From assembly GCA_903909215.1 (NCBI GenBank), contig CAIVUX010000022.1, forward strand, positions 7,609 through 71,608: a DNA stretch of 64,000 nt. Direction: 5' to 3'. A program made the translations under genes and the position numbers. Below are positions 8,683-53,333 of this stretch, one piece after another. The number at the start of each line of letters is the position of its first letter. Position 1 is the first letter of the stretch. Below the pieces are notes generated by a model. It had not been told where the DNA came from and ran no database searches. It saw nothing but the letters and a program-made list of their open reading frames with translations. This DNA is from an uncultured Ferrovum sp. (GTDB lineage: Bacteria; Pseudomonadota; Gammaproteobacteria; Burkholderiales; Ferrovaceae).

Positions 8683-8928
8683 TCAATCCTCAGCGGCAGC
8701 GTCGGAGGAAGAAGGCATAGTAACCGAACGTGCCGGCACGACCGTAGAAATAGCGTGCTTATAGACCATTTGGGTGGTGGTATTTTTAAGCAACACCACG
8801 TATTGGTCAAAGGACTCTACCTGACCCTGCAATTTAATACCGTTGACCAAGTAGATAGAGACGGGAATATGCTCTTTGCGCAAAGCATTTAAGAATGGGT
8901 CTTGTAATAATTGCCCTTTAACACTCAT
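8683..8928 (-). CDS. hfq: RNA chaperone Hfq
   Basis: [47 protein letters not shown] is the canonical Sm1/Sm2 core. The start was moved to the ATG at 8928 (the track begins 4 codons earlier). Confidence 0.97.
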
Positions 8929-9014
8929 GTGATACTCCAATTTATTATTATTAAAAATGAAACAATGTTTAACTTTACTGCATTTTCACTGCAATTGCCA
9001 GAAGCCTCGCGGCA

Positions 9015-29380: not shown

Positions 29381-30378
29381 GCTCACGCATTCTTATTGTC
29401 GGCGCCGCCTGGGTGGGCGACGCTGTACTGTCACAACCCTTGCTGGCCACACTGGCCGCACGCACTCCCCAACCTGAAATTCATATATTGGCTCCTGCTT
29501 TTACACAGGGGGTGTTGGCCCGCATGCCCGCAGTAACACGCATTATTGACAGTCCATTCAAGCATGGGGAATTGGGTTTGTTGACACGCTGGAGGTTGGG
29601 GCGATTTTTATCGCAACAGCAGTACAGCCAAGCCATCGTATTGCCCAACTCATTTAAATCTGCCTTAGTACCGTACTTTGCCAGCATTCCACTGCGCACA
29701 GGTATGGTGGGTGAATGGCGCAAGGGATTATTAAACGATGCGCGGGTATTGAATAAAACAACTTTGCCCTTGATGGTGGAACGTTTTGCTTCACTGGCAC
29801 TTGCCGCTGACGCGCCCCTGGCGCGTCCAGTGCCTCCGCCCCAATTGGTGGTAGAGCCTGCGGCACAAGCGTTGGCGTTGCGACGCTTAAATCTTTCAAC
29901 CCAGCAGCCCATCGCGGCGTTATGTCCAGGCGCTGAGTATGGCACCGCCAAGCGCTGGCCTGCCCGACACTTTGCCACCTTGGCGCGCACGTGGTTGGCT
30001 CAGGGGTTTCAAATTTGGTTGATGGGTTCCCCTAAAGATAGCCCCGTGGCACAGGCGGTGATGGATGGGTTGGTGGGCCCCATTCACAACCTATGCGGCA
30101 AAACTTCTCTTGCAGAAGCGGTGGATTTGATGGCCTTGAGCCAGCGTGTGGTGAGCAATGATTCAGGGTTGATGCATGTGGCTGCCGCTTTAAATCGCCC
30201 CCTGGTGGCCGTGTTTGGTTCTTCCAGTCCAGAATTCACACCACCCCTATCCAATCAGGCGCATGTGGTGCGTTTGGGTTTGCCCTGCAGCCCCTGTTTT
30301 CAACGTGAATGCCCATTGGGTCATTTAAATTGTTTAGAGCAGCTCACACCCGAGCATGTTTTGCAGGTGTGGACTTAA
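29377..30378 (+). CDS. waaF: ADP-heptose:LPS heptosyltransferase II (GT9)
   Basis: 333 aa. N-terminus ILIVGAAWVGDAVLSQPL, C-terminal NDSGLMHVAAAL and CSPCFQRECPLGH motifs. Confidence 0.85.
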   Translation: MSSRILIVGAAWVGDAVLSQPLLATLAARTPQPEIHILAPAFTQGVLARMPAVTRIIDSPFKHGELGLLTRWRLGRFLSQQQYSQAIVLPNSFKSALVPYFASIPLRTGMVGEWRKGLLNDARVLNKTTLPLMVERFASLALAADAPLARPVPPPQLVVEPAAQALALRRLNLSTQQPIAALCPGAEYGTAKRWPARHFATLARTWLAQGFQIWLMGSPKDSPVAQAVMDGLVGPIHNLCGKTSLAEAVDLMALSQRVVSNDSGLMHVAAALNRPLVAVFGSSSPEFTPPLSNQAHVVRLGLPCSPCFQRECPLGHLNCLEQLTPEHVLQVWT

Positions 30379-31037
30379 CTGTTTTGAAATACGTCGGCCA
30401 GTAAGTCCACGTCCTGCAAAATACCTTTATCCTCCACATCCACCCAAGTAATGCTTAGAGCATGGCGTTGCAACAGTGAGCGCGCCCCTTCATCACCTCG
30501 CAGTGCCATAAGCTCATTCCAATAGCGTCGAGAAAAGCCCACCGGATTACCCCGTGACCCCTGATAACACGGCACCACGATATCCGCCCCTTGCTCTAAG
30601 GCTTCTCGCAGCGCCGACACGGTGGAGGACTGTACCCAAGGCATATCGCCCAAGGCAACAATCCAGCCTGCAGCATCCGCGCTGCCCATAAGACCGCTGC
30701 GCAAGCTGAGCGACTGGCTTGGGATTAGTAAATATGGGGTCTGACCCCTGGGGGGGTCAGACCCCATATTTACCGTGTTTACCATGCTGACTAACTTCAA
30801 GTCAGCGGAGGTTACAGACACCACTGTTAAATTGGGACGCGAGGCGCCTATGGGGTTTTGTTGCAAAACGGCGCATAGGGGGGATGAGTCATCAGGCACC
30901 ACCGCCAGACTTTGCTGCAACGAGACCAAGCATTGAGCGGCGCGTACCACTACCGGCACGCCTTCTAATGCATGCAGTAATTTGTTGCTGCCAAAGCGTG
31001 AACTCTGCCCTGCGGCCAACAAAATTCCCACGATCAT
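30375..31037 (-). CDS. MobA-like NTP transferase (MocA-type molybdenum cofactor cytidylyltransferase) carrying a palindromic-element insertion
   Basis: N-terminus GILLAAGQSSRFGSNKLL and GDMPWV are typical of the MobA/MocA family. An ATGA overlap links it to xdhC. At 220 aa it is about 25 aa longer than the family members I remember, and the extra segment coincides with the repeat at 30729-30772. Confidence 0.8.
   Translation of the reverse strand: MIVGILLAAGQSSRFGSNKLLHALEGVPVVVRAAQCLVSLQQSLAVVPDDSSPLCAVLQQNPIGASRPNLTVVSVTSADLKLVSMVNTVNMGSDPPRGQTPYLLIPSQSLSLRSGLMGSADAAGWIVALGDMPWVQSSTVSALREALEQGADIVVPCYQGSRGNPVGFSRRYWNELMALRGDEGARSLLQRHALSITWVDVEDKGILQDVDLLADVFQNS
30729..30772. repeat. Perfect 20-bp inverted repeat: TAAATAT-GGGGTCTGACCCC, a 4-nt spacer (tggg), then GGGGTCAGACCCC-ATATTTA
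   Basis: Read directly from the sequence. On the minus strand it is translated in frame as V-N-M-G-S-D-P-P-R-G-Q-T-P-Y-L inside the MocA-like gene. A second 7-bp-stem hairpin, GCTGACT/AGTCAGC, lies at 30786-30806. Confidence 0.95.
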
Positions 31038-32020
31038 AATGGAGGTGGTGGCGCGCCTGTGGTTTGGCTGTCCTCGCGCCCTAGAGTAATGCCGTTGCGG
31101 ATGGCAGTGAGCTCTGCCAATATGGATATGGCTATTTCCGGAGGCGTGCGGCTGCCAATGGGTAAGCCTGCAGGACCGTGCAACGCTGCGCGCTGTGCAA
31201 CGCTTAAATCAAATAGAGCCAAACGTTCGCGGCGTGCCACTTGTGTGGCACGCGAACCTATGGCGCCCACATAAAACGCAGGGGATTTTAAGGCTTCTAT
31301 AAGCGCTAAATCATCTTGTTTTAAATCGTGCGTCAATGCCACGATGGCCGTATGGGGGTCGGGATTTAGCGCCAGGATAAAATCATCAGGCATCGCACTG
31401 TCGATAAGAACGTGATGCAAGCGCCACGACTTTTGAAATTCAGGACGCGGATCACAAATAAACACTTGATAATCTAACGCCAAAGCCATTTCAGCCAAAT
31501 AGCCACTGACCTGCCCGGCACCAATCATTAACAGTCGCCAGCGCGGTCCATGAATGGTGCGCAACACTGTGTCGGTACACAGCAGCGCATCAGACCGGTT
31601 GGCGGGCATGACATGCGCCGCACCTGTGGTGAGGTTTAACTCGCGTGCCACCACCAATTGCTCGGAGACGGCTTGCAGTAATTCATCAATGCCGCTTTCG
31701 GCATGCAAGGGCTCTAACACCACTTCCAAGCGGCCGCCACAGGGCAAGCCAAAACGTGCCGCCTCTTCTGCGCTTACGCCGTATGTGCATTTTTCGGGAT
31801 GAGCAATGGGGTGTTGTTGCACGCGTTCCAGTAAATCATCTTCAATACACCCGCCGGAAAGTGAGCCCACCAAGCGGCCATCCGAAGTGAGGGCCAGCAA
31901 CGCCCCAGCGGGGCGCGGCGCCGAACCCCAGGTGCGCACCAAGGTGGCCAACGTAACGACTGCCCCCTCTTGCTGCCAGGCGCTGACGGTTTTGAGCACT
32001 TCAAGATCGACACTATCCAT
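31034..32020 (-). CDS. xdhC: XdhC/CoxI-family molybdoenzyme maturation protein
   Basis: 328 aa. N-terminal XdhC_CoxI region ([35 protein letters not shown]) and a C-terminal Rossmann-like domain (LLMIGAGQVSGYLAEMA). Confidence 0.85.
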   Translation of the reverse strand: MDSVDLEVLKTVSAWQQEGAVVTLATLVRTWGSAPRPAGALLALTSDGRLVGSLSGGCIEDDLLERVQQHPIAHPEKCTYGVSAEEAARFGLPCGGRLEVVLEPLHAESGIDELLQAVSEQLVVARELNLTTGAAHVMPANRSDALLCTDTVLRTIHGPRWRLLMIGAGQVSGYLAEMALALDYQVFICDPRPEFQKSWRLHHVLIDSAMPDDFILALNPDPHTAIVALTHDLKQDDLALIEALKSPAFYVGAIGSRATQVARRERLALFDLSVAQRAALHGPAGLPIGSRTPPEIAISILAELTAIRNGITLGREDSQTTGAPPPPL

Positions 32021-32087
32021 AGGCCGTTATGATAGCGCGTAATACTGATGAGGTTAAAGTTCCTGGTGCAAAAGATAAGGGCAGGTA

Positions 32088-32351
32088 CTAAAAAAAACGG
32101 TGCAACTGCTTATAAATCCACAGCAATAGATAGCTGCTGGTGGCGATTAAACCCAATACGGTAACAAGGGGACGATCTTGCAACTCCATCATCAACGCCC
32201 ACCAAACCTGCCCACTACCCGTATGAGACAAGGCCTCTGGGGTTGAAAAAGCCTCGCGGCCCGATGCATTTAAAGCGGCACGTTCGGTTAGTGCTGCAAA
32301 CAAACATTTGCGTTGAGAAAACGACAGTCCGGGCATAGGCAGGTGTTTCAT
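32088..32351 (-). CDS. Hypothetical small membrane protein translationally coupled to trbL
   Basis: 87 aa with a single C-terminal TM segment (LVTVLGLIATSSYLLLWIY). Its ATG shares one nucleotide with the trbL TAA (TAATG at 32349-32353). I recognise no family. Confidence 0.45.
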   Translation of the reverse strand: MKHLPMPGLSFSQRKCLFAALTERAALNASGREAFSTPEALSHTGSGQVWWALMMELQDRPLVTVLGLIATSSYLLLWIYKQLHRFF

Positions 32352-33364
32352 TATTCATCTCCGTAATGGCGTTCTCTGGCGCTTTGTGCGCGCAACTGTT
32401 TGCCCATCCAATCATTGGCCTTATTCATACCCGATTGAATGCTGCGGCTGGAGGTGGTGGCAAAACCGGTGTCCACACGGGCATGCCCCACTAGGGCTGC
32501 GGCAATCTGTGGCACATGGCCCATCAAATAAGCCATGATGGAGGCCGTAATAATCAGCAACACAGCCAGCGCCATGGAATCTGTGGGACTGGCGTTGGTT
32601 AAGGTGGAGGAATTGGCTGTAATCCATTGTTGCAGCTGAATAAAGACCGGTTTGCTCATGGCCAGAACGGTGACAGAAATAACACGGTAGAAACAAGCGA
32701 TAAACAAAAACCGCACCCAGGACATGAAGAATTCTTTGGTGATATCCCACAGCAGCCATGGAATAAAAAACGGCCCCAAGGCCAAAGCCAAACCCGCCAA
32801 TGCGCTGCCCATCACATGAATGACGGCCAGGATGGCCAAAGCCACAATGAACACGCAAAGCGCCACAAAGAGCAGCAACACCGTCACCATCCAGCCCCCC
32901 AAAGCCCCCCAAAAAGCCCACGACAGTGGCGTGGCGCCACTGATAAAACGATCGGGGCTGCCGGCAATGGAATCCCAAACGGTCACGATGATGTCCATGA
33001 ACACGCTCCACGCACTGGCAAACCCTTGTGTATCACCATTGGAACCTGCAATGGCGGTCACCAATGCCTCGCACCCTTGATAAATACCTTGGTAAAAAAT
33101 AAAGTCGTAAGACTGCATAAACCACGCAACCAAACCGGCTAAAAAGAGAAAACGCAGGAGGCGCGATAGAATTTTTCCGAGACTATCCCCAGCCAAGGAC
33201 TCCAACAGCACATTCACGCCAAACCAAGACAAGGTAAGCAGTAACAGCGATCCGTATAAACTGTTTGAGACATCCGTCAGTTTGGTATTTAATGCGTGGC
33301 CTCCTTCCAAAAAAGCCTGTGCAAACTGATCGATAATGGCAGGTGATAAGGTGACGGTCGTCAA
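32351..33364 (-). CDS. trbL: P-type T4SS inner-membrane protein TrbL/VirB6
   Basis: 337 aa, polytopic (5-6 TM segments), in the canonical position after trbJ. A TTG start lies 3 nt after the trbJ stop. It is shorter than many TrbL proteins because it has no long C-terminal Pro/Gly tail. Confidence 0.75.
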   Translation of the reverse strand: MTTVTLSPAIIDQFAQAFLEGGHALNTKLTDVSNSLYGSLLLLTLSWFGVNVLLESLAGDSLGKILSRLLRFLFLAGLVAWFMQSYDFIFYQGIYQGCEALVTAIAGSNGDTQGFASAWSVFMDIIVTVWDSIAGSPDRFISGATPLSWAFWGALGGWMVTVLLLFVALCVFIVALAILAVIHVMGSALAGLALALGPFFIPWLLWDITKEFFMSWVRFLFIACFYRVISVTVLAMSKPVFIQLQQWITANSSTLTNASPTDSMALAVLLIITASIMAYLMGHVPQIAAALVGHARVDTGFATTSSRSIQSGMNKANDWMGKQLRAQSARERHYGDE

Positions 33365-33367
33365 GGC

Positions 33368-34177
33368 CTATCGCCCTGTACTCATAATGCCCCAACCCAA
33401 AGTAGATTCCTGTCCCTGCAATTGCAGGTGAAGTTGCTGAACCTTAGCCGCATCATCCTGCCGACGCTGCTGAATGATTTCACCAGCCATCTGATTGGCA
33501 CTCGCCTCATCTTGCGCTTTGGCTGTGGTATTGGCCTGAGAACCCGCCATAAGTGCAATCAGTTGCGCATTTTGACCGGCCATTAAATTAAGATGTTGGT
33601 TAACGGTTTGAAAGCTTTGTTGCAATCCACTACTGGCAGGAATTTGCTCTTGCAACAACAGCACGCGCGCATACGCATCATTTACCCCTTGCAATGCAGC
33701 AACCTGCCCCTGGAAAACGGTCTGCAGGCTCTGGCCGCGGTATTGCGCCACTTGCATCTCACGACTCATGTAGTCGCTGGGAGTAACACCCATGGCCGCC
33801 ATTTGGCGAAACTGCGTGTTAAATGTTGATTGCGCACCGTTTTGTTGGATCAGTAGCGTGGTTAATGATTGCGATAACGACTGTGCTGTGCTGAGTTCGC
33901 TGCTATACGAATTTAAAGTCTGGTTGAATGTGGTTTGTGGAAATTTTTGTAGGTTTTGTAATTCGATGATGTATTGCTGAACCTGCAACAGATAGGATTG
34001 CACCATTTGTGCCGTTTGGCGAATAGAGTTGGCAGCCGTTACGGCAGTTTCTGCGTAATTGGCAGGATCAAATACGGTGATACCCATTCCTTCACACGCC
34101 AGCGCGAGCAGAGAGAGGCTTAGCGCGCCCAACAGACGCACAAATAATGCCGGCCGCACGTGATGCAACACATTCAT
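33368..34177 (-). CDS. trbJ: P-type T4SS protein TrbJ/VirB5-like
   Basis: Signal peptide followed by a VFDPANYAETAVTAANSIRQ motif and a long Gln-rich helical region typical of TrbJ. An ATG at 34177 forms an ATGA overlap with the trbE stop; the track starts one TTG codon earlier. Confidence 0.75.
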   Translation of the reverse strand: MNVLHHVRPALFVRLLGALSLSLLALACEGMGITVFDPANYAETAVTAANSIRQTAQMVQSYLLQVQQYIIELQNLQKFPQTTFNQTLNSYSSELSTAQSLSQSLTTLLIQQNGAQSTFNTQFRQMAAMGVTPSDYMSREMQVAQYRGQSLQTVFQGQVAALQGVNDAYARVLLLQEQIPASSGLQQSFQTVNQHLNLMAGQNAQLIALMAGSQANTTAKAQDEASANQMAGEIIQQRRQDDAAKVQQLHLQLQGQESTLGWGIMSTGR

Positions 34178-36663
34178 CAAACACCCCGCCCTATTTCTAA
34201 CAAATACTCACTGGCCCAATCTGGGTGGGTTGAGTGATAATGCCGATCAAACACCGCCTGAGCCTTGGCATCCGAACGCAACCAACCCAGCAACGCTTGC
34301 GGAAAGGCCGCCTCCACCAGTTGGCTGCCGGCCGGGGTTTCGATGTAGTAATGTCGCTTTTCTATGGCACGCTCAATACGGTGAATTTGCGCATCATTCA
34401 AACCAAATTGCTTTCGGTACAGTTCACGATGCACAAAGGCTTGTCGATTGGGTAAAAACACACGGGTGGGGATATTATCGGCAATAGTCGAAAATATTTC
34501 TGAGCTGGATAAATCATCTAAGGATTGCGTAGCCAATACCAATGAACCCAATTTTTTAGGTATGGTTTTTAGCCAATCGCGAATACGTGCTGAAAAGTAC
34601 GGATCGGATAACATAAACCAAGCTTCCTCCACGTAAATCAGGGTAGGAATGCCCGGCCCACTATTAAGCGCCTCGCTCACTCTAAAAAAAGCATATTCCA
34701 AAAACGCTCTGGCCACACGGGTGTCGCGCAGCACCGCCGCCATTTCAATGCATGTAAAAGCAGTTAATGTAAACGTGTCTTCCAATTGATCAAAATAACC
34801 GCCCATGGGGCCACCGGCCAACCAAGGCTCTAGTTCAGCACTCAGGTGGCGGGGCAATAAGCCATGCAGACTTTTAAGTTGATGCAGATGGGGCGATAAG
34901 GCCGCCAATCCCTCAATGGCCTGCCACAGGGCATTGTCATCACCCGCCACCAAATGGTAACCGCGTGCGGTAATTAAGATCTCAATCCATTGTGCCAACC
35001 ATTGATGATGGCGCTCTTGTGCAACCAATAGCAGTGGATTTAGTCGTACCCGCCCATCCGACACATCAATACATCGCCCGCCTTGCAGCAAGGTGGGAAT
35101 GCGGCATGAGCGGTCTTTATCAAAAATGATGGTGCGTACAGGATGGTATTTTTGAAACTGGCTGAGCACAAAATTAACCCATACGGATTTACCGCTGCGC
35201 GAGGGGCCCACCACAAAGGCGTGAGCCAAATCGTGGTGATGCAAATTAAAGTAATAAGGACTACCAGTGGGTGTATTAAATAAAGTGAGCGCTGGAGCAG
35301 GACGACTTGTTTGCTGTGCTAGGTAAACGTTTACTCGTTCACCATTAGTATTAGAACGAATGGGACATAAATCGGACCAGTTGGCGGTATTGATAAAATG
35401 CCAACGCACCAACTCGCCCCACTGACCGGGCAAGGTTCCTGCCCACGCCGAATTAAGATGCAAACGTTCGCGCAACAATAAAAAACCGTGAGTTCGAATG
35501 GAAGAAGCCACTAACCCCAATCCTTCATCGAGCGCATCCAAGGTTTTGGCGTAAACCATGGCCGTGAGGTTATGATACCCAAACACCCGTTGTGAGGACG
35601 CCATCTCTGTTAAGGCATCCCGTGCATCACCTGCAGAAATGGCGCGCCCCGTGTCTTTTACCACGCTCTCTTCCCCGGACAACGCTTCTCGCACAAAACT
35701 GAACAAAGATTTTTGCAAGTTAAGATGAAATCTTTGCACATTCTTGATATAACTCTTGGCCGAGTCCGTATCCACCAAGCGAAACACTTGCGACAATGTT
35801 AATTCAGCGGGTACGGTAAGCACGTCATCTAACATCTGCGGAAATGTCGTGCTGGGCCATCCTTTAATGGCCAATGCGCCACCCAAGCGCAAATGTTCCA
35901 CTCCTTCAAAACGAATATGATCTCCATTGACCACCACCCGATCTTCTCCTAAGGCGGTATCCAAATATCCCTCTGCCGGAATGCATGGCGCCGCCTCACG
36001 CCGCGTGGCGGGACTGGTGACTTCATGCAAAAAACCAATTAAATCCACCCCTTCTAAGCGCACAGGGCCCAAAGACTGTAAGGTGCCAGAAAAATAACCG
36101 AGCAATTCTTCAAATCGTTCTATGCGCCGCAATAAAACTTGCTCATCATGAAGGTAGGCTTCACTGTGAAAAAAATGCCGACTCGTGGTTTTCCATAATC
36201 GGTACAGCACCCCTCCGTCACCGTGCCCCGCAGCCCTCGCCAGCTCACTCCATAATCCATCATGGTGCTTGTCCAGTGAAAATAACACGCTGATGAAATG
36301 ACGATTGTAAAAATGAGGTTCGCCGGCAAGAGACTGTCGATAGAGGGCGTCGATGGTGGCGCTGCCCAGATGTTCAAAAGTGCCTTGTGGGTAATCGTGC
36401 CATTCACGACGCAACACCGTAGACCATAGGGTAAAACGATGGTCAAAATTACGCAGTGCCTGTTCAAATAACACAACACCGTGATCAATAGCCCCACCCT
36501 CTAAACCCTCCACCGCCATACCACGCAACGAAAAGCAGGCCAGCAAACCACCATCTTTATTAAGGATTAGCCCAGGTTTTATATGAATCAGCCACGGCAA
36601 CACTTCAGCCAGACCACGCGAACGGCCATCAAAACCCAAGGCCCGTCGTTTAATATTTAGCAT
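34177..36663 (-). CDS. trbE: T4SS ATPase TrbE/VirB4
   Basis: 828 aa. Walker A GPSRSGKS, a Walker B-like IYVEEAW, and the LATQSLDD motif. Size and position match TrbE. Confidence 0.9.
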   Translation of the reverse strand: MLNIKRRALGFDGRSRGLAEVLPWLIHIKPGLILNKDGGLLACFSLRGMAVEGLEGGAIDHGVVLFEQALRNFDHRFTLWSTVLRREWHDYPQGTFEHLGSATIDALYRQSLAGEPHFYNRHFISVLFSLDKHHDGLWSELARAAGHGDGGVLYRLWKTTSRHFFHSEAYLHDEQVLLRRIERFEELLGYFSGTLQSLGPVRLEGVDLIGFLHEVTSPATRREAAPCIPAEGYLDTALGEDRVVVNGDHIRFEGVEHLRLGGALAIKGWPSTTFPQMLDDVLTVPAELTLSQVFRLVDTDSAKSYIKNVQRFHLNLQKSLFSFVREALSGEESVVKDTGRAISAGDARDALTEMASSQRVFGYHNLTAMVYAKTLDALDEGLGLVASSIRTHGFLLLRERLHLNSAWAGTLPGQWGELVRWHFINTANWSDLCPIRSNTNGERVNVYLAQQTSRPAPALTLFNTPTGSPYYFNLHHHDLAHAFVVGPSRSGKSVWVNFVLSQFQKYHPVRTIIFDKDRSCRIPTLLQGGRCIDVSDGRVRLNPLLLVAQERHHQWLAQWIEILITARGYHLVAGDDNALWQAIEGLAALSPHLHQLKSLHGLLPRHLSAELEPWLAGGPMGGYFDQLEDTFTLTAFTCIEMAAVLRDTRVARAFLEYAFFRVSEALNSGPGIPTLIYVEEAWFMLSDPYFSARIRDWLKTIPKKLGSLVLATQSLDDLSSSEIFSTIADNIPTRVFLPNRQAFVHRELYRKQFGLNDAQIHRIERAIEKRHYYIETPAGSQLVEAAFPQALLGWLRSDAKAQAVFDRHYHSTHPDWASEYLLEIGRGV

Positions 36664-36980
36664 GGTAGTGCACGCCCAAAACCATCAGGACGTGGGTTGC
36701 GTTTTATGCGCACATGCGGCCATGGGTCGTAACTGTCTGCTTGATGGTTGTAACGCACATAAATAAGCCGTGTGAAGGGGTCATCTAAGGTGATGCGGCG
36801 CAAAATGAGATGCGCCAATACGGCGATGGGTACCCAGCCCCAGAGGTGTAAATCGCCCACCAGGGCTATGGCCAAGGTGCCGTTTACGATGGCAAATGGT
36901 TTTTCAACGCCGGCAATGAGCAAGGGCTCTACCAAGGCCAAATGCAATGCGCTGCGACGACGCTGAGATACCGTGCTCAC
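36657..36980 (-). CDS. trbD: T4SS protein TrbD/VirB3
   Basis: About 107 aa with a hydrophobic hairpin (LAIALVGDLHLWGWVPIAVLAHLIL). A GTG at 36980 forms a GTGA overlap with the trbC stop, and the gene overlaps trbE by 7 nt. Confidence 0.75.
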   Translation of the reverse strand: MSTVSQRRRSALHLALVEPLLIAGVEKPFAIVNGTLAIALVGDLHLWGWVPIAVLAHLILRRITLDDPFTRLIYVRYNHQADSYDPWPHVRIKRNPRPDGFGRALPC

Positions 36981-37327
36981 AAACAACCCGGTATGCTAAC
37001 GCCTGGGAACAATGCGGTAATGATACTGGCTACAGAAAGCGCGCAGGAAAGGCCCAACAACCATCCCCCAATGCGCGCCACGATACCCCCTGTTTCAGAA
37101 TACATAAACATAATGCCAATCATGATGGTGGCCACCACGGATAACATGACGGCCACTTGGTCCTTAAGGCTGGCGGCTACGGCACACATGGGGCCTTCCC
37201 AGGGCATTGCGGTGCTGGCCTCAAGCGGGCCTGCTGCGGCACATAGCAAGAACAGCAATAGTGCGCTTGCACCCAGATGCAAATTAATGGCTAAATAAAA
37301 CGTGCGTTTGGTAGTGGCCATCGCCAT
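36977..37327 (-). CDS. trbC: T4SS pilin precursor TrbC/VirB2
   Basis: Signal-like N-terminus plus two hydrophobic helices (VAVMLSVVATIMIGIMFMY / WLLGLSCALSVASIITALF). GGAGGGG lies upstream of the ATG codons at 37327 and 37321, so the exact start is uncertain. The longer track ORF runs back into trbB. Confidence 0.7.
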   Translation of the reverse strand: MAMATTKRTFYLAINLHLGASALLLFLLCAAAGPLEASTAMPWEGPMCAVAASLKDQVAVMLSVVATIMIGIMFMYSETGGIVARIGGWLLGLSCALSVASIITALFPGVSIPGCL

Positions 37328-38300
37328 ACCCCTCCACAGAAATAAGCTTTTCAATTTGGCGCACACCATTGCGTCGTGTAAGGTGCACCACGCCATCAAT
37401 ACAATTGGAAATATGCCGAGCAATAGCCTCTATTGCCAAACCCACGCCGCTTTGCATGACCAGTTGCTCCAGGCGATGCAAGGCGTCTTGCGCACTATTG
37501 GCATGCAAGGTGCCCAAGCAGCCGTCATGACCGGTGTTCATGGCCTGAATTAAATCGAAGGCTTCGCCTCCACGCACTTCACCCACCACAATTCGATCTG
37601 GGCGAAAGCGCAAGGATTGACGCACCAAATCGCGCACCGTCACACCCAATGTTTGGTTGGCCTCAAAGGTCACATAATTGGGAAGATCGATAGTCAATTC
37701 GCGCGGGTCTTCAATCGCAATAATGCGATCACTGCAGGACATGACCTTAATTAAGGCATTTAAAAAAGTGGTTTTCCCTGTACTGGTTCCACCGCTCACC
37801 AAGATATTCTTGCGATACTTAACCCAATCCGTAAGCTGATCCAATGGTTCTGCGCCCACTTGGAACTCTTTGCTCAACAGATTCTGGGCTTCTTGAGCGC
37901 TGGTTGCGGAGGGGGTTTGTGGCAGATAGTCAGACAGTGACCGTAGAGCGCCGGACAACTTGCGAATGCATAGCGCATGGCCTTTTGTGGCAATAGGCGA
38001 GAGCACAGCGGACACCCGCATGCCACTAAAAGCAGCGTCCAATAGCGAAGGGCCATTGTGCCGACCCACATCACGCTGGGCCATGGTGCCTAAAATATGA
38101 ATGGCATTGCGTGCTTCATGACTTGAAAACGCATGTTCGGTTTTATGCAAACACCCTGCGCGCTCTACCCATACATCGTCAGCACCATTAATCATGACCT
38201 CGCGCACCATGGGGTCGTCCAACAACGCCACCAAGGGGTTTAAGGAATCGCGCAACATAAGAGAGAGGTGTTGGTGCATGTCTGGGTTCATGCAAACCAT
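37284..38300 (-). CDS. trbB: T4SS/secretion ATPase TrbB/VirB11
   Basis: 338 aa. Walker A GGTSTGKTTFLNAL, a DRIIAIEDPREL Asp box, a RPDRIVVGEVRG Walker B, and a His box (GHDGCLGTLHAN). The exact start (one of the M codons at 38300-38259) is unclear, and no good SD is present. Confidence 0.88.
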   Translation of the reverse strand: MVCMNPDMHQHLSLMLRDSLNPLVALLDDPMVREVMINGADDVWVERAGCLHKTEHAFSSHEARNAIHILGTMAQRDVGRHNGPSLLDAAFSGMRVSAVLSPIATKGHALCIRKLSGALRSLSDYLPQTPSATSAQEAQNLLSKEFQVGAEPLDQLTDWVKYRKNILVSGGTSTGKTTFLNALIKVMSCSDRIIAIEDPRELTIDLPNYVTFEANQTLGVTVRDLVRQSLRFRPDRIVVGEVRGGEAFDLIQAMNTGHDGCLGTLHANSAQDALHRLEQLVMQSGVGLAIEAIARHISNCIDGVVHLTRRNGVRQIEKLISVEGYGDGHYQTHVLFSH

Positions 38301-38360
38301 GCTAGGGCCAGAGAAGATTTTTAGGCGGTCAAATAACAGAAGATTTTGTTGCTTTTAAAA

Positions 38361-39425
38361 TTAGATGCGTGGTGCTCGCTTGGCATTACACAGCAATTCA
38401 TAGGCCACCGTGCCGGCCCTTTGCGCCACCTGCTCCACGGGAACCTGATCGCCCCACAGTTCTACTGCAGCCCCTAAACCCACGTGTGGCAAGTCGGTTA
38501 AATCCACCATCAGCATATCCATGGACACGCGCCCGATAAGCGGTGCACTATGCCCCATCACCGCTATGGGCGTGCCCTGCACCGCACTGCGCGGATAACC
38601 ATCGGCATAACCACAGGGAACCACCCCCACACGCGTGGTGCGCTGAGCCCGAAAAACCCCACCATAACCCACCGATTCACCCGGGGCGATGGTGCGCACC
38701 GCACTGATGGCAGATTCAAGGGTCATGACGCGCTCCAAGCCACCGCGCGGTGCCACATCCGGTGCGCCAGGATCTATGCCATACAACATCAGCCCCGGAC
38801 GAGCCCAATCACCGCGCACGTCGCTATGGCCCAAAATGGCACCGGAATTACACAGACTGGTGGGTGCTGTAAGGCCTTGGGTGGCGTTTTTAAAACGCTG
38901 CATCGGCATTATGAGGGTCTGTGCATCCGCGCCGTCGGCATTGGCAAAATGCGTCATGAGGGTAATGCTGCTGACATAAGTGCTGGCACGCAACGATTCA
39001 AACGTAGTGCCGCATTCTTCCGGTGCCACACCCAAACGGTGCATACCCGTATCCACCTTCAACCACACATCCAGTTTTTGATTGGATTTTAATCCGGACA
39101 ACCCTTTTACCTGTTCTGCGTGATGAATGACCGGTGTGAGTTGATGCGCCACCACCTCAGCCATTTCGGCTGCGGCAAACACCCCTTCTAGCAGCACAAT
39201 AGGCCCTGTAAGCCCTGCTTGACGCAAATGCAGAGCTTCATCCAATGTGGCCACCGCAAAACCATCAGCAGAAGACTGCAGCGCTTGAGCGCAAGCCACA
39301 TCCCCATGCCCGTAAGCATTGGCCTTAATCACCGCCAAAATACGCCCGCCATGGAGTTGACGCGCCTTGGCGCAATTGCGCACCAAGCGGTCTAGATGAA
39401 TCAGGAATCGAGTAGGACGGGTCAT
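38361..39425 (-). CDS. alr: Alanine racemase
   Basis: PLP-lysine motif AVIKANAYGHG and a C-terminal beta domain. Trimmed to MTRPTRFLIHLD (ATG at 39425). Confidence 0.92.
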   Translation of the reverse strand: MTRPTRFLIHLDRLVRNCAKARQLHGGRILAVIKANAYGHGDVACAQALQSSADGFAVATLDEALHLRQAGLTGPIVLLEGVFAAAEMAEVVAHQLTPVIHHAEQVKGLSGLKSNQKLDVWLKVDTGMHRLGVAPEECGTTFESLRASTYVSSITLMTHFANADGADAQTLIMPMQRFKNATQGLTAPTSLCNSGAILGHSDVRGDWARPGLMLYGIDPGAPDVAPRGGLERVMTLESAISAVRTIAPGESVGYGGVFRAQRTTRVGVVPCGYADGYPRSAVQGTPIAVMGHSAPLIGRVSMDMLMVDLTDLPHVGLGAAVELWGDQVPVEQVAQRAGTVAYELLCNAKRAPRI

Positions 39426-39469
39426 GGGCGCATAATAGCGGCTTTTGACCTGTTGGGACGCAGCTTTTG

Positions 39470-40510
39470 ATGAATCCATCGCCACTTTTCTCCTCAAACC
39501 CTAAGGCTAGCCCCTTTCGAGCCCCCAGATGGCTGGGTGATCCTCATGCACAAACCCTCTATGGCGCCCTATTAGCACCCGTCGGCACGCCGCTCTGGCA
39601 ACGCGAAACATGGACCACCCCCGACAATGACTTTATCCATGTGGATACCCTAGAGGGGGCGCCCGACGCACCCTTACTGGTGATTTTTCATGGGCTGGAA
39701 GGCAGTACCAACTCACGCTACAGCCGCGCGTTAGCCCTTGCAACACAGGCACGGGGTTGGCGTGTATGCGCGCCCAACTTTAGAAGTTGTAGCGGCATCA
39801 TGAATCGCGCTCCGCGTCTGTATCATGCAGGCGACAGTGCCGAGATTGACTGGATTTTAAAACGCGCCTGGACCTTGGGGTCAGACCCCACTACTCTTGT
39901 GGGGTCTGACCCCAAAGTGCAACGACCCATGTTCGCGGTAGGCGTATCTTTGGGCGGCAACATGTTGCTGAAGTGGTTGGGCGAGCAAGGCGCTACAGCC
40001 AAACCTATCCTACATGCCGCCGCCGCCGTGTCTGCACCCCTGGATTTGGCTGCTGTGGCGGAAAACCTGTCTTTGGGTTTTAACCGCGTCTACACCCACC
40101 ATTTCTTAAGCACCCTTAAACAAAAGGCGCGCGCCAAATACGCACAGCACCCACACCTGTTCGACTTACACCGCACGCTGTCCTCGCGCACCATGCGTGA
40201 CTTTGACGATCACTTCATGGGACCGGTGCATGGCTTTCGTGATGCCGAAGATTATTGGGCACGCTCTAGCAGCACACCGTTTTTGCCGCTGATTCAGGTG
40301 CCCACGCTGTTATTAAACGCTCAGGATGACCCTTTTATGCCCGCCGGCGTGTTGCCTAATGCCCGCCAATGCGCCACGGCTGTTAGACGCGACTTTTCAG
40401 CACAAGGCGGTCATGTGGGATTTGTGTCTGACGGTTTTCCCGGCCATTTAAAGTGGATGCCGCAGCGGGTATTGGATTTTTTGGCGTCCTCTTTAAACCC
40501 AATCAGGTAA
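39470..40510 (+). CDS. Alpha/beta hydrolase, YheT/ABHD1-3-like, carrying a palindrome-pair insertion
   Basis: Contains HGLEGS, a nucleophile elbow GVSLGGN, and a C-terminal DDPF...GGHVGF. An ATG at 39470 follows the TTG used by the track. An extra segment, LGSDPTTLVGSDPK, lies just before the nucleophile elbow. Confidence 0.8.
   Translation: MNPSPLFSSNPKASPFRAPRWLGDPHAQTLYGALLAPVGTPLWQRETWTTPDNDFIHVDTLEGAPDAPLLVIFHGLEGSTNSRYSRALALATQARGWRVCAPNFRSCSGIMNRAPRLYHAGDSAEIDWILKRAWTLGSDPTTLVGSDPKVQRPMFAVGVSLGGNMLLKWLGEQGATAKPILHAAAAVSAPLDLAAVAENLSLGFNRVYTHHFLSTLKQKARAKYAQHPHLFDLHRTLSSRTMRDFDDHFMGPVHGFRDAEDYWARSSSTPFLPLIQVPTLLLNAQDDPFMPAGVLPNARQCATAVRRDFSAQGGHVGFVSDGFPGHLKWMPQRVLDFLASSLNPIR
39877..39913. 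repeat. Inverted pair of the 13-bp palindrome (GGGGTCAGACCCC, an 11-nt spacer, GGGGTCTGACCCC)
   Basis: Both copies are perfect. It is read on the plus strand as G-S-D-P-T-T-L-V-G-S-D-P within the hydrolase gene. Confidence 0.95.
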
Positions 40511-48514: not shown

Positions 48515-49054
48515 CTAGAACCAGTGACCCACACGCAATTGAAGAAAGTTAATGCCTGGGTTGGGGTTTTGAATGCCCGCGTTGGAGAGATGCTGAAAGC
48601 GGACCATCACATCCCAATCTTGCTTTTCACCCACCGTAATGCCGGCGCCAATATGATCGCCAAACTGAAAATGGGTACTCATATTTTTATCATAAAAAAT
48701 ACGCGATTGACTGAGGTAATGCACGCCCACCGCCAACTCTACGAAAGGCGTGACGCTGCCGATTTTCGTCTGGCGAGCACGCCATACGGGGGTAATCGAA
48801 AAGTCCGTGGTGACCTGATTGCCGCCCGTGGCGGCATGGGGGTTCCAAGTTCCGATACTGGCATCCCAATACCCGCCCAGTGACCACGTATGATCAGTAA
48901 ACCAACGGGTTTCCCAAGCATGGGATAAGGATAGGCGCTCCATGTTGGTGTGATCGCCATAACCGGCTTCTATGGAGATGGCGTCAGCGGGATAGGCGCT
49001 TTTGGCTACCAACAGGGTTAAGGCGCATAAGATGAAATAGATTTTTTTAATCAT
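48515..49054 (-). CDS. PagL-family lipid A 3-O-deacylase / acyloxyacyl-hydrolase-type outer-membrane beta-barrel
   Basis: Signal peptide MIKKIYFILCALTLLVAKSAYPADA, a beta-barrel pattern, a C-terminal FQHLSNAG (His/Ser catalytic motif context) and a terminal aromatic residue. The track ORF is over-extended across the SRP RNA gene. Confidence 0.7.
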   Translation of the reverse strand: MIKKIYFILCALTLLVAKSAYPADAISIEAGYGDHTNMERLSLSHAWETRWFTDHTWSLGGYWDASIGTWNPHAATGGNQVTTDFSITPVWRARQTKIGSVTPFVELAVGVHYLSQSRIFYDKNMSTHFQFGDHIGAGITVGEKQDWDVMVRFQHLSNAGIQNPNPGINFLQLRVGHWF

Positions 49055-49090
49055 GGTGTGCAAAAACCCATCAGTAGTCGTGAATAAAAG

Positions 49091-49190
49091 GGGTGGCGAG
49101 CCTAACCCCCGGCACTTACAGGATGTAGTTGTGGCTGCTTCCTTCCGGACCTGACCAGGTTCACTACGCTGCAATGCGGGGAGGCCCGCC
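49091..49190 (-). ncRNA. ffs: Signal recognition particle RNA (4.5S, small bacterial type)
   Basis: The minus strand reads GGCGGGCCUCCCCGC...ACCUGGUCAGGUCCGGAAGGAAGCAGCCAC...GCCGGGGGUUAGGCUCGCCACCCC. The GGUCAGGUCCGGAAGGAAGCAGCC core is the conserved domain IV motif of E. coli 4.5S RNA. The 5' GGCGGGCC pairs with the 3' GGCUCGCC, and a U-run follows. The ends are accurate to a few nt only. Confidence 0.88.
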
Positions 49191-49248
49191 ATAGAAAGAG
49201 AGGATGCGGGAAAAACCCGATAAATTCAAGAGCTGAGCACATAAAGCT

Positions 49249-50607
49249 TTAAAGGGCCACACGAAAGTCGCAACCGGTCTTGGCTCTCACTTGCTCGAGG
49301 GTTACCCCCTCATGAAGCTCCGTGAGCACCAGGCCTGCTCCCGGCTCCACTTGAAATACGCATAGTTCTGTAATGATGGTGTTTACCACGGCGCGCCCGG
49401 TAATGGGCAACGAACATGATTTGAGAATTTTAGGTTCGCCATGTTTGGAGGCATGCTCCATCAGCACAATGACGCGGCCCACACCAGACACCAAATCCAT
49501 GGCCCCACCGGGACCTTTCACCATTTTACCCGGCACCATCCAATTGGCCAGATCACCGTTTTCTGCCACCTCAAGCCCGCCTAAAATAGAGAGGTCCACG
49601 TGACCCCCGCGGATCATGGCAAAAGAATCGGCACTGGAAAAAGTGCTGGAGCCTGGCAGAGTAGTAATGGTTTGCTTGCCCGCATTAATCAAATCAGCGT
49701 CCACCGTGTCTTCTGTGGGAAAAGGGCCAATACCCATCAAGCCATTTTCTGATTGCAACGTGACATGAATGTCTTCAGGGATGTAATTGGCCACCAAGGT
49801 GGGGATGCCAATTCCCAAATTAACATAGAAGCCATCTTTTAATTCCTTTGCTGCCCGCATGGCCAATACTTCACGTACCGATAAATGATGGTGATCCACA
49901 TGATGCCCGCCTGTCAGCGTGCGAAACTCGATGCGTTTTTGGTAGTTTTTACCCTGAATGATGCGGTCCACATAAATGCCAGGGGTGTGAACGCTGTCTG
50001 GATCCAGTTCGCCCGGTTGCACCAGTTCTTCCACCTCCGCCACGGTAATACGCCCGCAAGTGGCCACCATGGGGTTAAAGTTGCGCGCTGTTTTACGAAA
50101 CACCAAGTTGCCTAAGGTGTCGCCCTTCCAGGCTTTCACAATCGACAGATCTGTTTGAATGGCTTCTTCTAATACGTATTCGCGCCCTTTAAACTCGCGC
50201 GTGGGCTTCCCTTCTGCCAATAATGTTCCGACAGCGGTGCGGGTATAAAACCCAGGAATACCAGCGCCCCCGGCGCGGAGCTTTTCTGCCAAAGTGCCCT
50301 GCGGCGTCAATTCTAACTCCAGTTCATGGGCCAACACCTGACGCTCAAATTCCTTGTTCTCGCCCACATAAGAGGCAATCACTTTTTTAACCTGATGGGT
50401 TTTTAGCAGTAAGCCCATGCCAAAATCATCCACGCCGGCATTGTTGCCCACAATGGTTAGGCCTTTAGCTCCGCTGTCCACCAACGCTTCAATAAGGTTT
50501 TCTGGAATTCCGCATAAACCAAAACCACCTGCGGCAATGGACATATCATCATGAAGCAAACCGGCCAATGCACTTTTGGCATCGGGAAACACCTTATTGA
50601 GGGCCAT
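49249..50607 (-). CDS. 3-oxoacid (succinyl-CoA:3-ketoacid) CoA-transferase, subunits A and B fused in one polypeptide
   Basis: 452 aa. The N-terminal half resembles subunit A (AAGGFGLCGIPENL). The C-terminal half resembles subunit B, with the catalytic-Glu motif LQSENGLMGIGP. The two halves are joined by a His-rich linker (TGGHHVDHHHL). Confidence 0.85.
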   Translation of the reverse strand: MALNKVFPDAKSALAGLLHDDMSIAAGGFGLCGIPENLIEALVDSGAKGLTIVGNNAGVDDFGMGLLLKTHQVKKVIASYVGENKEFERQVLAHELELELTPQGTLAEKLRAGGAGIPGFYTRTAVGTLLAEGKPTREFKGREYVLEEAIQTDLSIVKAWKGDTLGNLVFRKTARNFNPMVATCGRITVAEVEELVQPGELDPDSVHTPGIYVDRIIQGKNYQKRIEFRTLTGGHHVDHHHLSVREVLAMRAAKELKDGFYVNLGIGIPTLVANYIPEDIHVTLQSENGLMGIGPFPTEDTVDADLINAGKQTITTLPGSSTFSSADSFAMIRGGHVDLSILGGLEVAENGDLANWMVPGKMVKGPGGAMDLVSGVGRVIVLMEHASKHGEPKILKSCSLPITGRAVVNTIITELCVFQVEPGAGLVLTELHEGVTLEQVRAKTGCDFRVAL

Positions 50608-50703
50608 TGAATAATCAATCCGTGAAATAAAAGGAGGGGAAAGCCCATTTTACCGCAGCGCAGCAAACTGTGGTGAAAGTTTAACGCCAGACAAAGCCGA
50701 ATT

Positions 50704-51351
50704 TTAGGGTGGTAATAGCTTGTTTCTTAAGGCTATTAAAGTTAACTCGGCTTGGTTTTTCGCGGCCAGCTTTTGTTTGATGTTGTACAGATGGGTCCCC
50801 ACAGTGCGGGGGCTTAAAAACAAGGTTTCGGCAATCTGTGCCACAGACTGTCCGGCTGCCAAATGCATAAACACTTCAAACTCACGCTCAGAGAGCACTT
50901 CCACGGGGTTAGAAGACCCAGAAAGAGATTCTTCAACCAGCGCTGAGGCCAAGTGAGGGTCCAGATAGGTTTCATTGCGCGACACTTGCCAGAGGGCTTT
51001 GATGAGCTCTTCTGCCGCACTGCGTTTGGACAAATAACCGCGCGCGCCGGCGGCCATGAGGCGCCGTGGGTGCACGGTATCTTCATGAGCCGAGAGAATC
51101 AATATGCGCGCATCGGGGTGATGGGCCAGAATGCGACTTAAGGCCTCCATGCCTCCAATGCCTGGCATAGACACATCCATCACCAGTACATCGGGCAAGG
51201 CCTCAGGGTAAATACGGCACGCCGCCTCGCCACTGTCGGCCTCGGCGCATACCACCATGTCACCACCGCCCTCCACCAACATACGAAATCCCATGCGCAC
51301 CACCGCATGATCATCTGCCAACATGACACGCAAAGGATGCGCACTCTTCAC
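50704..51351 (-). CDS. NarL/FixJ-family response regulator (REC + LuxR-type HTH)
   Basis: REC motifs (LADDH, DVLVMDVSMPG) and a C-terminal LSEREFEVFMHLAAGQSVAQIAETLFLSPRTVGTHLYNIKQKL. A GTG at 51351 forms a GTGA overlap with the kinase stop. An alternative ATG lies at 51324. Confidence 0.85.
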   Translation of the reverse strand: MKSAHPLRVMLADDHAVVRMGFRMLVEGGGDMVVCAEADSGEAACRIYPEALPDVLVMDVSMPGIGGMEALSRILAHHPDARILILSAHEDTVHPRRLMAAGARGYLSKRSAAEELIKALWQVSRNETYLDPHLASALVEESLSGSSNPVEVLSEREFEVFMHLAAGQSVAQIAETLFLSPRTVGTHLYNIKQKLAAKNQAELTLIALRNKLLPP

Positions 51352-52709: not shown

Positions 52710-52775
52710 AAAAAAACAAACCAAAATTTCAATCACATATGATACCAGAGCGAGCGCTCTGCCCCGCTCTGGGGC

Positions 52776-52819
52776 ATAATTTGGGGTCAGACCCCGCATG
52801 GGGTCTGACCCCAAATTAT
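52776..52819. repeat. Perfect 20-bp inverted repeat: ATAATTT-GGGGTCAGACCCC, a 4-nt spacer (gcat), then GGGGTCTGACCCC-AAATTAT. Intergenic.
   Basis: Read directly from the sequence. It has the same architecture as 30729-30772. It lies in the divergent kinase/folA promoter region and ends 13 nt before the folA ATG at 52833. Confidence 0.95.
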
Positions 52820-52832
52820 GAAATGGACGACC

Positions 52833-53333
52833 ATGACACAACCCAAGCTATCCCTCATTGTGGCCATGACCCCCGAGCGGGTGATTGGGGCCCATAACAC
52901 CATGCCCTGGCATTTGCCGGCGGACTTGGCTTTTTTTAAGGCCACCACCATGGGTTGCCCTATTGTTATGGGCCGAAAAACCTTTCAATCCATTGGTCGG
53001 CCCCTGCCTGGTCGGCGCAACATTGTGCTGACCCGTGATAAACAATTTTCAGCTGCCGGCATTGAAGTAGCCTATTCCATCGAAAAAGCACTGGAGAGTT
53101 GCGCGGGTGTAGGAGAGGTTTTTGTTATTGGCGGCGCTGAATTATTTGAGTCCACCTTGAGCGCTGCGCAACGCATTTATCTCACACACATTGACGCCCA
53201 CCTAGAGGGCGATACGTTTTTTCCAGAATTAGAAAACGGAGCCTGGCATGAAACGTCGCGCCGCACTCATCCACGGGATGAGCGCAACGCGTACAACCTA
53301 AGTTTTAGAGTGCTGGAACGTACGGCCTGCTGA
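52833..53333 (+). CDS. folA: Dihydrofolate reductase
   Basis: Contains LSLIVAMTPERVIGAHNTMPWHLPADLAFFK and GRKTFQSIGRPLPGRRNIVLT. An ATG at 52833 is preferred over the track start at 52818, which lies inside the repeat arm. Confidence 0.93.
   Translation: MTQPKLSLIVAMTPERVIGAHNTMPWHLPADLAFFKATTMGCPIVMGRKTFQSIGRPLPGRRNIVLTRDKQFSAAGIEVAYSIEKALESCAGVGEVFVIGGAELFESTLSAAQRIYLTHIDAHLEGDTFFPELENGAWHETSRRTHPRDERNAYNLSFRVLERTAC

Follow-up and report, generated by a model that had tools for sequence, protein, structure and literature searches.

We analysed a 64,000-nucleotide stretch of DNA from an uncultured Ferrovum sp. (contig CAIVUX010000022.1, positions 7,609 to 71,608; hereafter the window) which carries, at 32088-38300, seven co-directional open reading frames (ORFs) on the minus strand. 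Six of these were identified with Pfam and NCBIfam as components of a type IV secretion system (T4SS) in the order trbB-C-D-E-J-L, while Pfam annotation of the other large ORFs yields housekeeping genes only. The original prediction, made from the sequence alone, of an orphan half operon set among housekeeping genes is thereby borne out. The first gene, trbB (37284-38300), encodes a VirB11-type hexameric traffic ATPase of 338 amino acids (Pfam T2SSE, E-value 6.7e-46; NCBIfam TrbB_P 7.5e-65 and VirB11 5.7e-62). It is followed by trbC (36977-37327), for a VirB2 pilin precursor of 116 residues (Pfam TrbC/VirB2, 1.2e-8), for which the ATG at 37327 is a likelier start than the upstream TTG given by the ORF finder, and by trbD, for a small inner-membrane protein of the VirB3 family (Pfam VirB3, 5.9e-7) with 107-109 residues according to whether a GTG (36657-36980) or a TTG (36657-36986) start is used. 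Next come trbE (34177-36663), for the 828-residue VirB4 ATPase (NCBIfam TrbE 5.9e-119, VirB4_CagE 3.2e-118); trbJ (33368-34177), for a VirB5-like, predicted secreted and all-helical protein of 269 residues counted from the ATG at 34177 (NCBIfam TrbJ_Ti, 3e-10); and trbL (32351-33364), for a polytopic inner-membrane VirB6 protein of 337 residues (Pfam TrbL/VirB6, 4.8e-15). The seventh ORF, orf87 (32088-32351), encodes 87 residues with a C-terminal transmembrane helix.

The Pfam gathering cut-offs were passed by TrbC (35.4 bits), VirB3 (30.1 bits) and TrbL (56.3 bits). All scores lay far below the NCBIfam equivalog cut-offs, for example 398 against 1020 bits for TrbE, so that the cluster represents a divergent branch of the T4SS family. 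It possesses each of the VirB4, VirB11, VirB2, VirB3 and VirB6 components by which VirB/Trb (MPF-T) systems are recognised.

Direct reading of the sequence supports the predicted tight coupling of the genes. The trbB 3' end is overlapped over 44 nt by trbC, the trbC stop and trbD GTG start share GTGA, trbD and trbE overlap by 7 nt, and the trbE stop and trbJ start, and the trbL stop and orf87 start, share TGATG and TAATG, respectively. The ATPase motifs are intact: TrbB has its Walker A (GGTSTGKT), Asp box, Walker B and His box, and TrbE has its Walker A (GPSRSGKS) along with conserved Walker B and ATQS motifs. The Walker B sequence of TrbE, IYVEEAW, is unusual and its double Glu was considered as a sign of degeneration; since complete conjugative relatives share the motif, it is not a defect and that explanation was rejected. 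Among solved structures, TrbE matches TrwK of R388 (2.9e-38), and TrbB is closest to CpaF (2.9e-46) and Brucella VirB11 (3.2e-30); searches of the PDB with sequences and profiles of the pilin, TrbJ and TrbL gave no match. At 337 residues TrbL is shorter than its counterparts of 400-455 residues in conjugative relatives, lacking a C-terminal extension present in those.

The DNA inspected comprised the 64 kb of this genome and 10 kb on either side of each relative's locus. Neither tblastn nor iterated, purpose-built hidden Markov models (HMMs) revealed VirB8, VirB9, VirB10, a coupling protein or a relaxase in the window. HMMs built from the relatives' own VirB9 and VirB10 proteins had no match in the window or in any locus of the two groups of closest relatives, A and B, described below; VirB8 was likewise without a match in the window or in the flanks of these groups, and relaxase and coupling protein were missing from both the window and the group A loci. 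The cluster leaves no spare coding space for a VirB7-like lipoprotein. No integrase occurs among the window ORFs, no convincing att-like direct repeats flank the cluster, and the single tRNA gene in the window (2851-2937) lies 29 kb away. Relaxase and coupling protein, integrase and an att or tRNA integration site, features that mark a conjugative element, are missing from the window, as the original prediction had stated for the integrase, relaxase, coupling protein, flanking tRNA and att-like repeats; nor is the distribution patchy, the cluster keeping a fixed site and co-diverging with its flanks. Annotation of the window ORFs with Pfam showed no competence genes near the cluster, and PADLOC detected no defence system, giving weak P-loop matches (4.7e-5 and 7.7e-7) to mad8 alone. 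In a promoter and terminator scan of 30300-39600, matches were no more numerous than in shuffled sequence, so operon boundaries could not be called.

A VirB4 search gave 67 protein clusters and a scan of one genome per species gave 45 loci; these relatives fall into three groups, A, B and C. Group A, with VirB4 55-96% identical, comprises around 22 loci, among them those of Ferrovum myxofaciens P3G, Ferrovum sp. and Ferrovaceae metagenome-assembled genomes (MAGs). In about 20 species-level Ferrovaceae genomes the cluster sits at one chromosomal site (L001, L002/L003, L009-L026, L033 and L055), with alr, a hydrolase gene and pgm on one side and a heptosyltransferase gene (GT9), an aminotransferase gene and yhdP on the other. 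The alanine racemase gene alr (in the window at 38361-39497, minus strand; Pfam Ala_racemase_N and Ala_racemase_C) is the upstream neighbour and bounds the insertion site, adjoining trbB in all group A loci long enough to show it. Downstream, and outside the machine, the molybdenum-cofactor maturation genes xdhC-mocA (30375-32020, minus strand; Pfam and NCBIfam) are interposed in the subgroup nearest the window and absent in F. myxofaciens, which retains the trb genes; published locus tables place the T4SS genes of F. myxofaciens Z-31 between heptosyltransferase and alr. VirB8, VirB9, VirB10, coupling protein and relaxase are found in no group A flank.

Comparison of the alr-to-xdhC interval among relatives, proposed along with the original prediction, shows these same genes in about 20 other Ferrovaceae and an empty site in Ferrovum sp. 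JA12 and PN-J185, where consecutive locus tags run heptosyltransferase, MobA-like, XdhC, Alr, hydrolase, PGM (Ullrich et al. 2016 supplement). Both of these genome-reduced strains conserve a different T4SS locus (FERRO_12270-12480 in JA12, FV185_04060-04320 in PN-J185), ordered VirD4-TrbB-VirB2-TrbD-VirB4-TrbJ, then approximately eight unrelated genes, TrbL, an ABC-transporter/MFP set and TrbF-VirB9-VirB10. This is another interrupted, chromosomally embedded T4SS.

Fuller versions of the locus were found in the two remaining groups. Group B consists of five lake MAGs labelled uncultured Ferrovum, spanning 47-70% GC, with VirB4 43-46% identical to that of the window. Its trbB-to-trbL module lies in a housekeeping context, with xdhC-mocA or heptosyltransferase a few kb downstream and with neither VirB8-10 nor relaxase nearby. 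Directly upstream of trbB are genes for an FlhD-like protein, an FlhC-like protein, a 294-residue ORF and a coupling protein of the SXT_TraD type whose Walker A and B motifs are intact (L031 3829-7424; also L034, L039 and L045). From this gene content the clade B module suggests an intermediate stage of domestication. A further candidate component in this clade, orf319, was rejected, since its ratio of non-synonymous to synonymous substitution rates (dN/dS) exceeds 1 and it is probably not a gene. Group C, with VirB4 at most 43% identical, contains mostly complete conjugative systems of other Betaproteobacteria, made up of a TraI_2-type relaxase, coupling protein, DtrJ-like protein and trbB-trbL block, then VirB8-VirB9-VirB10, frequently with a second CagX/TcpQ protein. 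Coupling protein, relaxase and VirB8-9-10 occur together in L006/L035, L007, L008, L028, L032, L037, L043, L048, L050 and L051. Outside the Ferrovaceae clade, trbB-C-D-E-J-L blocks were also seen in an Acidiferrobacter MAG (L004/L005) and in REEB MAGs (L030/L036), where the flanks at hand contain neither VirB8-10 nor a coupling protein; L030 and L036 have flanking genes in common, with dN/dS of 0.10-0.19. These blocks may represent independent partial retention, or the other block may lie beyond the fetched DNA.

In a neighbour-joining tree of VirB4, groups A and B are each monophyletic in 200 of 200 bootstrap replicates and are nested among conjugative systems. Within group A, pairwise divergence of TrbB, TrbD, TrbE, TrbJ and TrbL correlates with that of Alr, PGM, the class-IV aminotransferase (AT4), GT9 and the hydrolase (r 0.89-0.98), mean divergence being 0.36 for TrbE and 0.38 for Alr. 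The cluster thus co-diverges with its flanks down to Alr identities of 53-68%. Base composition tells the same way. The dip in GC noted in the original prediction is real, but its size is 50.6% for the cluster against 53.3% for the remainder of the window, not 40-50% against 55-65%, and GC3 values overlap. Across genomes of 47-70% GC the cluster follows its flanks with r 0.96 and a mean offset of -1.5 points. A difference of some 3 points in a cluster that tracks its host does not sustain the suggestion that lower GC betrays horizontal origin; rather, given this tracking, the acquisition is ancient and ameliorated.

Every cluster gene is uninterrupted in every locus, except where the end of a contig cuts it. 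Selection was assessed through pairwise Nei-Gojobori (NG86) counts on unsaturated pairs. The six trb genes have dN/dS of 0.01-0.20, as low as that of the neighbouring housekeeping genes (alr 0.12-0.15, GT9 0.12-0.16, PGM 0.08, AT4 0.02-0.04). Between the window and L054 (dS 0.25-0.32) the values are 0.03 for TrbD, 0.08 for TrbE, 0.09 for TrbJ and 0.04 for TrbL; in the F. myxofaciens group they are 0.12-0.19 for TrbB, 0.02-0.15 for TrbC, 0.07-0.20 for TrbD, 0.06-0.10 for TrbE, 0.10-0.13 for TrbJ and 0.05 for TrbL, with 0.17-0.37 for orf87. Overall, TrbE falls at 0.06-0.12 and TrbD at 0.03-0.20, and bona fide conjugative relatives yield 0.05-0.33. The cluster shows none of the frameshifts, truncations, dN/dS near 1 or foreign composition of a decayed element, and the impression given by full-length ORFs and intact ATPase motifs, namely that this is not random decay, is reinforced by their intactness at all orthologous loci. 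The cluster is inherited vertically, under strong purifying selection, at one site in Ferrovaceae, a family of iron oxidisers. In clade A and clade B alike xdhC-mocA is linked to the module, and the most parsimonious history is therefore a single ancient fixation with two later losses, of the module in JA12/PN-J185 and of xdhC-mocA in F. myxofaciens.

The mature pilin is nearly invariant. TrbC has a variable signal peptide followed by a mature helix-loop-helix of approximately 78 residues, running from MPWEGP-C to PGCL. Mature sequences are on average 96% identical within group A and 79% between groups A and B, compared to 64% and 45%, respectively, for VirB4. Its dN/dS is about 0.01-0.15 and its synonymous divergence is normal, so that the conservation reflects selection and not recent exchange. 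A near-invariant conjugation-type pilin within a diverging machine is unusual in the light of what is generally known of pilin divergence, the measurement here being made at these loci only, and hints that an interaction with some host component constrains it. A database search with TrbC gave 63 homologous clusters, all of the same type, the named ones coming from Ferrovum or Betaproteobacteria. An AlphaFold2 model from 34 sequences is a two-helix hairpin with a predicted local distance difference test score (pLDDT) of 67, for which Foldseek finds the T-pilus VirB2 chain 8exh_A only at an E-value of 6.8. Two cysteines close to the termini of the mature protein, Cys48 and Cys115, do not vary, and most of the conjugative relatives aligned have a similarly placed pair. 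In the complete relative L006, a gene for a DsbG-like thiol:disulfide interchange protein lies between trbC and trbD (8870-9667). Given the invariant pair and this gene, the sequences suggest a terminal Cys48-Cys115 disulfide in mature TrbC, in place of pilin cyclisation. The pilins RP4 TrbC and Ti VirB2 are cyclised head to tail, and the proposed disulfide would be functionally comparable.

For TrbJ, the TrbJ_Ti match spans 19-229 of 253 profile positions but is under the cut-off of 100.55 bits, and there is no Pfam match. The gene sits between virB4 and virB6, as expected of virB5, and its product has an N-terminal signal-like segment and a conserved G-rich/VYDP-NH-ETA motif. The AlphaFold2 model of TrbJ (20-sequence alignment) is all-helical with pLDDT 62 and a predicted template modelling score (pTM) of 0.41; both this model and that of the pilin are poor (pLDDT 62 and 67), and neither matches the PDB at an E-value of 0.001 or below in Foldseek. 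An LALAC motif in the window's TrbJ brought a lipoprotein to mind, an assignment rejected because the Cys is not conserved across orthologues. The original prediction correctly had trbL followed by an 87-residue ORF and then xdhC/mocA; that ORF is, however, no incidental neighbour. It has no Pfam or NCBIfam family match and just 10 representative clusters among 1.84 billion proteins, and yet an HMM built from its orthologues finds a match right behind trbL in each complete locus of group A, even where gene callers had missed the ORF. The same HMM matches eight group C conjugative relatives (L028, L036, L037, L038, L043, L048, L050 and L053). Judged by this distribution, orf87 belongs to the T4SS as its conserved seventh component.

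The remainder of the window is unexceptional. On one side lie rnr, purA, hisZ, hflKC, hflX, der, bamB, hisS, ispG, rlmN, ndk, tilS, accA, an aroG-like gene, tldD, yhdP and genes for a class-IV aminotransferase and a heptosyltransferase, then mocA, xdhC and the cluster; beyond it are alr, the hydrolase gene, pgm, ispF, ispD, mltF, serS, recR and dnaX, and further on genes for a CoA-transferase, a two-component pair, a polyhydroxybutyrate depolymerase, an H+-PPase, pfk, adk, kdsB and lpxK. The lipopolysaccharide heptosyltransferase, LpxK, BamB and YhdP among these mark Ferrovaceae as ordinary diderms. A signal recognition particle (SRP) RNA gene occupies 49092-49190 (Rfam, 80.8 bits), overlapped by a probably spurious ORF of 225 residues (48515-49192, minus strand). 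The window's CoA-transferase is 74% identical to one beside the clade B module. CoA-transferase and a LuxR-type response regulator lie some 11-14 kb from the cluster in the window (49249-52841), and their counterparts directly adjoin the module in clade B (L031 15440-16807 and 21444-22439), a placement that suggests wider ancestral synteny, later rearranged.

A palindromic 13-mer, GGGGTCWGACCCC, is present in the window in 10 copies, compared to 0 expected from shuffles. The copies (518-593, 30736-30765, 39877-39913, 52783-52812 and 55468-55480) are grouped as pairs or a triplet with spacings of 4-23 nt, except for one that stands alone, and all are inside coding regions: those of RNase R, mocA, the hydrolase, a histidine kinase and a NUDIX gene. 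MocA has 220 residues in the window and about 202 in relatives. Since the word has no copy in any of 55 related loci, and none in the cluster, its occurrences look like lineage-specific intragenic palindromic mini-insertions, and the speculation that linked it, through DNA uptake, to the T4SS genes falls away.

Taken together, these data lead us to regard the cluster as a domesticated (exapted) sub-assembly of a conjugative T4SS, a half-machine put to a new use and not the decaying remnant of a mobile element, a reading to which we give a probability of roughly 0.6. Its ancestor would have been a conjugative element of Betaproteobacteria that carried FlhDC-like activators together with a TraI_2-type relaxase and an SXT-TraD-type coupling protein, and in which trbB-C-D-E-J-L-orf87 and virB8-virB9-virB10 formed separate blocks. 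In the Ferrovaceae ancestor the trbB-to-orf87 block would have become fixed in the chromosome beside xdhC. No descendant appears to have a relaxase or the VirB8/9/10 block linked to it, and clade B would have kept the regulators and coupling protein that the window's clade lost.

What remains may be viewed in the light of the R388 cryo-EM structure, in which the inner-membrane complex is made of VirB3 and VirB4, the stalk of VirB6 and VirB5 pentamers, the arches of VirB8 and the outer-membrane core of VirB7/9/10 (PMC9259494). By analogy with such homologous machines, the retained VirB3 and VirB4 would correspond to the inner-membrane complex and VirB6 and VirB5 to the base and tip of the stalk, with VirB11 and VirB2 completing the set; the missing parts would be the VirB8 arches and the VirB7/9/10 outer-membrane core. 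For R388 it has been proposed that VirB4 levers VirB2 out of the membrane onto an assembly site on VirB6, that VirB5 ends at the tip and that VirB11 is a possible trigger (PMC9259494). By homology, VirB4 of the cluster, modulated by VirB11, would extract the signal-peptide-processed pilin, probably disulfide-bonded through its two invariant cysteines, from the inner membrane and polymerise it on a VirB6/VirB5 platform. What results would be a filament or a pseudopilus-like envelope structure serving a host function and not DNA self-transfer. We advance more tentatively, as somewhat short of an even chance, the stronger proposal that the cluster encodes an autonomous T4SS-derived inner-membrane motor of a new functional class, assembling a VirB2 filament without VirB7/8/9/10. 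That filament would be either a periplasmic pseudopilus or a fibre with an unrelated outer-membrane exit, kept across Ferrovaceae diversification for a function other than conjugation, and today's lineages would still record a stepwise loss in which relaxase and outer-membrane core went first and coupling protein and FlhDC regulators followed.

Several observations weigh against domestication of a half-machine. The node giving clades A and B a single origin is recovered in 140 of 200 bootstrap replicates (70%), and dN/dS rises to 0.26-0.42 among the high-GC members of clade B. The putative VirB5, TrbJ, is assigned from its sub-threshold profile match and from gene order. The absence of VirB8-10 holds for the 64-kb window and the 10-kb flanks. 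No route is known by which a VirB2 filament would cross the outer membrane without a VirB7/9/10 core. Furthermore, pilus production in the diderm T4SSs studied needs VirB2-VirB11, VirB7-10 included (PMC9259494), and for this reason a stand-alone machine is without experimental precedent and would be new biology.

An alternative is that the T4SS is complete but split, with VirB8/9/10 (and VirB7) at other chromosomal sites, like the scattered rvh genes of Rickettsiales, or borrowed from other resident T4SSs. Physical separation would be easy, since parent elements already hold VirB8-10 as a block downstream of, or away from, trbB-trbL; the intact coupling protein of clade B suggests that substrates are still recruited there; F. 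myxofaciens P3G has extra T4SS genes, VirB8/9/10 homologues included; and the bounds of the inspected DNA leave room for a second locus. Yet VirB8-10 were found in none of about 25 flanks, and the published inventory of F. myxofaciens Z-31 names, besides the genes linked to alr, a single TrbD and a TrbL-TrbF-TrbG fragment on its own, with no VirB10 or VirD4. The extra systems differ between P3G and Z-31 and, being strain-variable, cannot explain selection acting family-wide, while JA12 and PN-J185 have other T4SS loci without the trbB-orf87 module. On balance we judge a split system rather unlikely.

A second alternative is an inner-membrane translocase, in which the ATPases and VirB3/VirB6 move a macromolecule between cytoplasm and periplasm and another system handles the outer membrane; the cargo would be DNA (taken up or released) or protein, and the pilin a periplasmic conduit or pseudopilus. 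The SXT-TraD-type coupling protein and FlhDC-like activators directly upstream of the module in the sister clade are in keeping with this, and Helicobacter pylori ComB (PMC12857230) and crenarchaeal Ced are examples of domesticated T4SS relatives by which chromosomal DNA is moved. The window's own clade, however, has neither coupling protein nor relaxase at the window or group A loci, no competence genes were seen near the cluster, and the lineage-specific palindromic word provides no family-wide uptake signal. ComB, moreover, is established to depend on its own homologues of VirB7-10 for the passage of DNA through the outer membrane. A translocase seems to us distinctly improbable. As for an inert remnant left by an integrative conjugative element, by chance not yet decayed, the gene set is indeed incomplete for conjugation, its neighbours are unrelated, and the published genome papers took the genes as signatures of horizontal transfer. 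Such a reading is contradicted by the selection and synteny data: genes intact wherever a contig end does not truncate the locus, intact catalytic motifs, dN/dS of 0.01-0.20, co-divergence with the flanks at Alr identities of 53-68% and fully ameliorated GC. We give it hardly any credence.

If the cluster is indeed a domesticated half-machine, it offers a natural test of a minimal T4SS, that is, of how much inner-membrane complex, stalk and pilin achieve by themselves, in a field that views the VirB7/9/10 core and VirB8 as necessary to diderm T4SSs for both pilus production and secretion. Culturable F. myxofaciens P3G is an organism in which it can be examined. The relatives would form a staged series of domestication, from complete element, through module with regulators and coupling protein, to module alone and finally empty site. 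Loss of the relaxase followed by exaptation of the conjugation apparatus is an established theme (PMC3158045, PMC8987985), and among the T4SSs listed in a recent review are some that do without VirD4, noncanonical DNA translocators and archaeal systems. In the literature we found no description of a diderm lineage keeping only the VirB2/3/4/5/6/11 set, but annotation-level mentions occur in two Ferrovum genome papers. These pool the cluster genes with fragments of other loci, call the whole a 'nearly complete' T4SS and take it as a sign of horizontal transfer; our results correct that picture, the cluster being an old, vertically inherited, family-level trait and not a near-complete conjugation system.

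Among known systems, the rvh genes of Rickettsiales are virB genes scattered over chromosomal loci, vertically inherited and without a relaxase; the system is complete overall (VirB8-11, VirD4) but has no VirB5. Unlike rvh, Ferrovaceae yielded no second locus in the DNA inspected, and at least one published inventory (Z-31) is without VirB10. The crenarchaeal Ced and Ted systems are minimised T4SSs of monoderms, chromosomal and not self-transmissible, with a VirB4-type ATPase, a VirB6-like protein and a VirB2-like pilin only. Their hosts have no outer membrane, whereas Ferrovaceae are diderms. H. pylori ComB keeps VirB7-10 and is without VirB11 and VirB5, so that the cluster retains the opposite half. 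Like the cluster, ComB is a chromosomal T4SS derivative with a host function and without relaxase or coupling protein (PMC12857230). The conjugative VirB/Trb systems (MPF-T, P-type; R388 Trw, RP4 Tra2/Trb, Ti Trb) have the same VirB11/2/3/4/6 homologues, and putatively the same VirB5, in trbB-C-D-E-J-L order, together with the intact ATPase motifs and the signal-peptide pilin with a two-helix mature part seen here. Unlike them, the cluster locus is without VirB8/9/10/7/1, coupling protein, relaxase and oriT-processing genes, is chromosomal, vertically inherited and non-mobile, carries the extra orf87 and encodes a TrbL without the C-terminal extension. The direct parent family consists of betaproteobacterial conjugative elements (L006/L035, L007, L028, L032, L037, L043, L048, L050 and L051), in which VirB4 is 31-43% identical to that of the window. 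These elements differ from the cluster in being complete, with TraI_2-type relaxase, coupling protein, DtrJ-like protein, VirB8-9-10 and a second CagX/TcpQ-like protein, but have the same gene order, including an orf87-like gene after trbL, the same EEAW in Walker B and the same pair of cysteines in the pilin.

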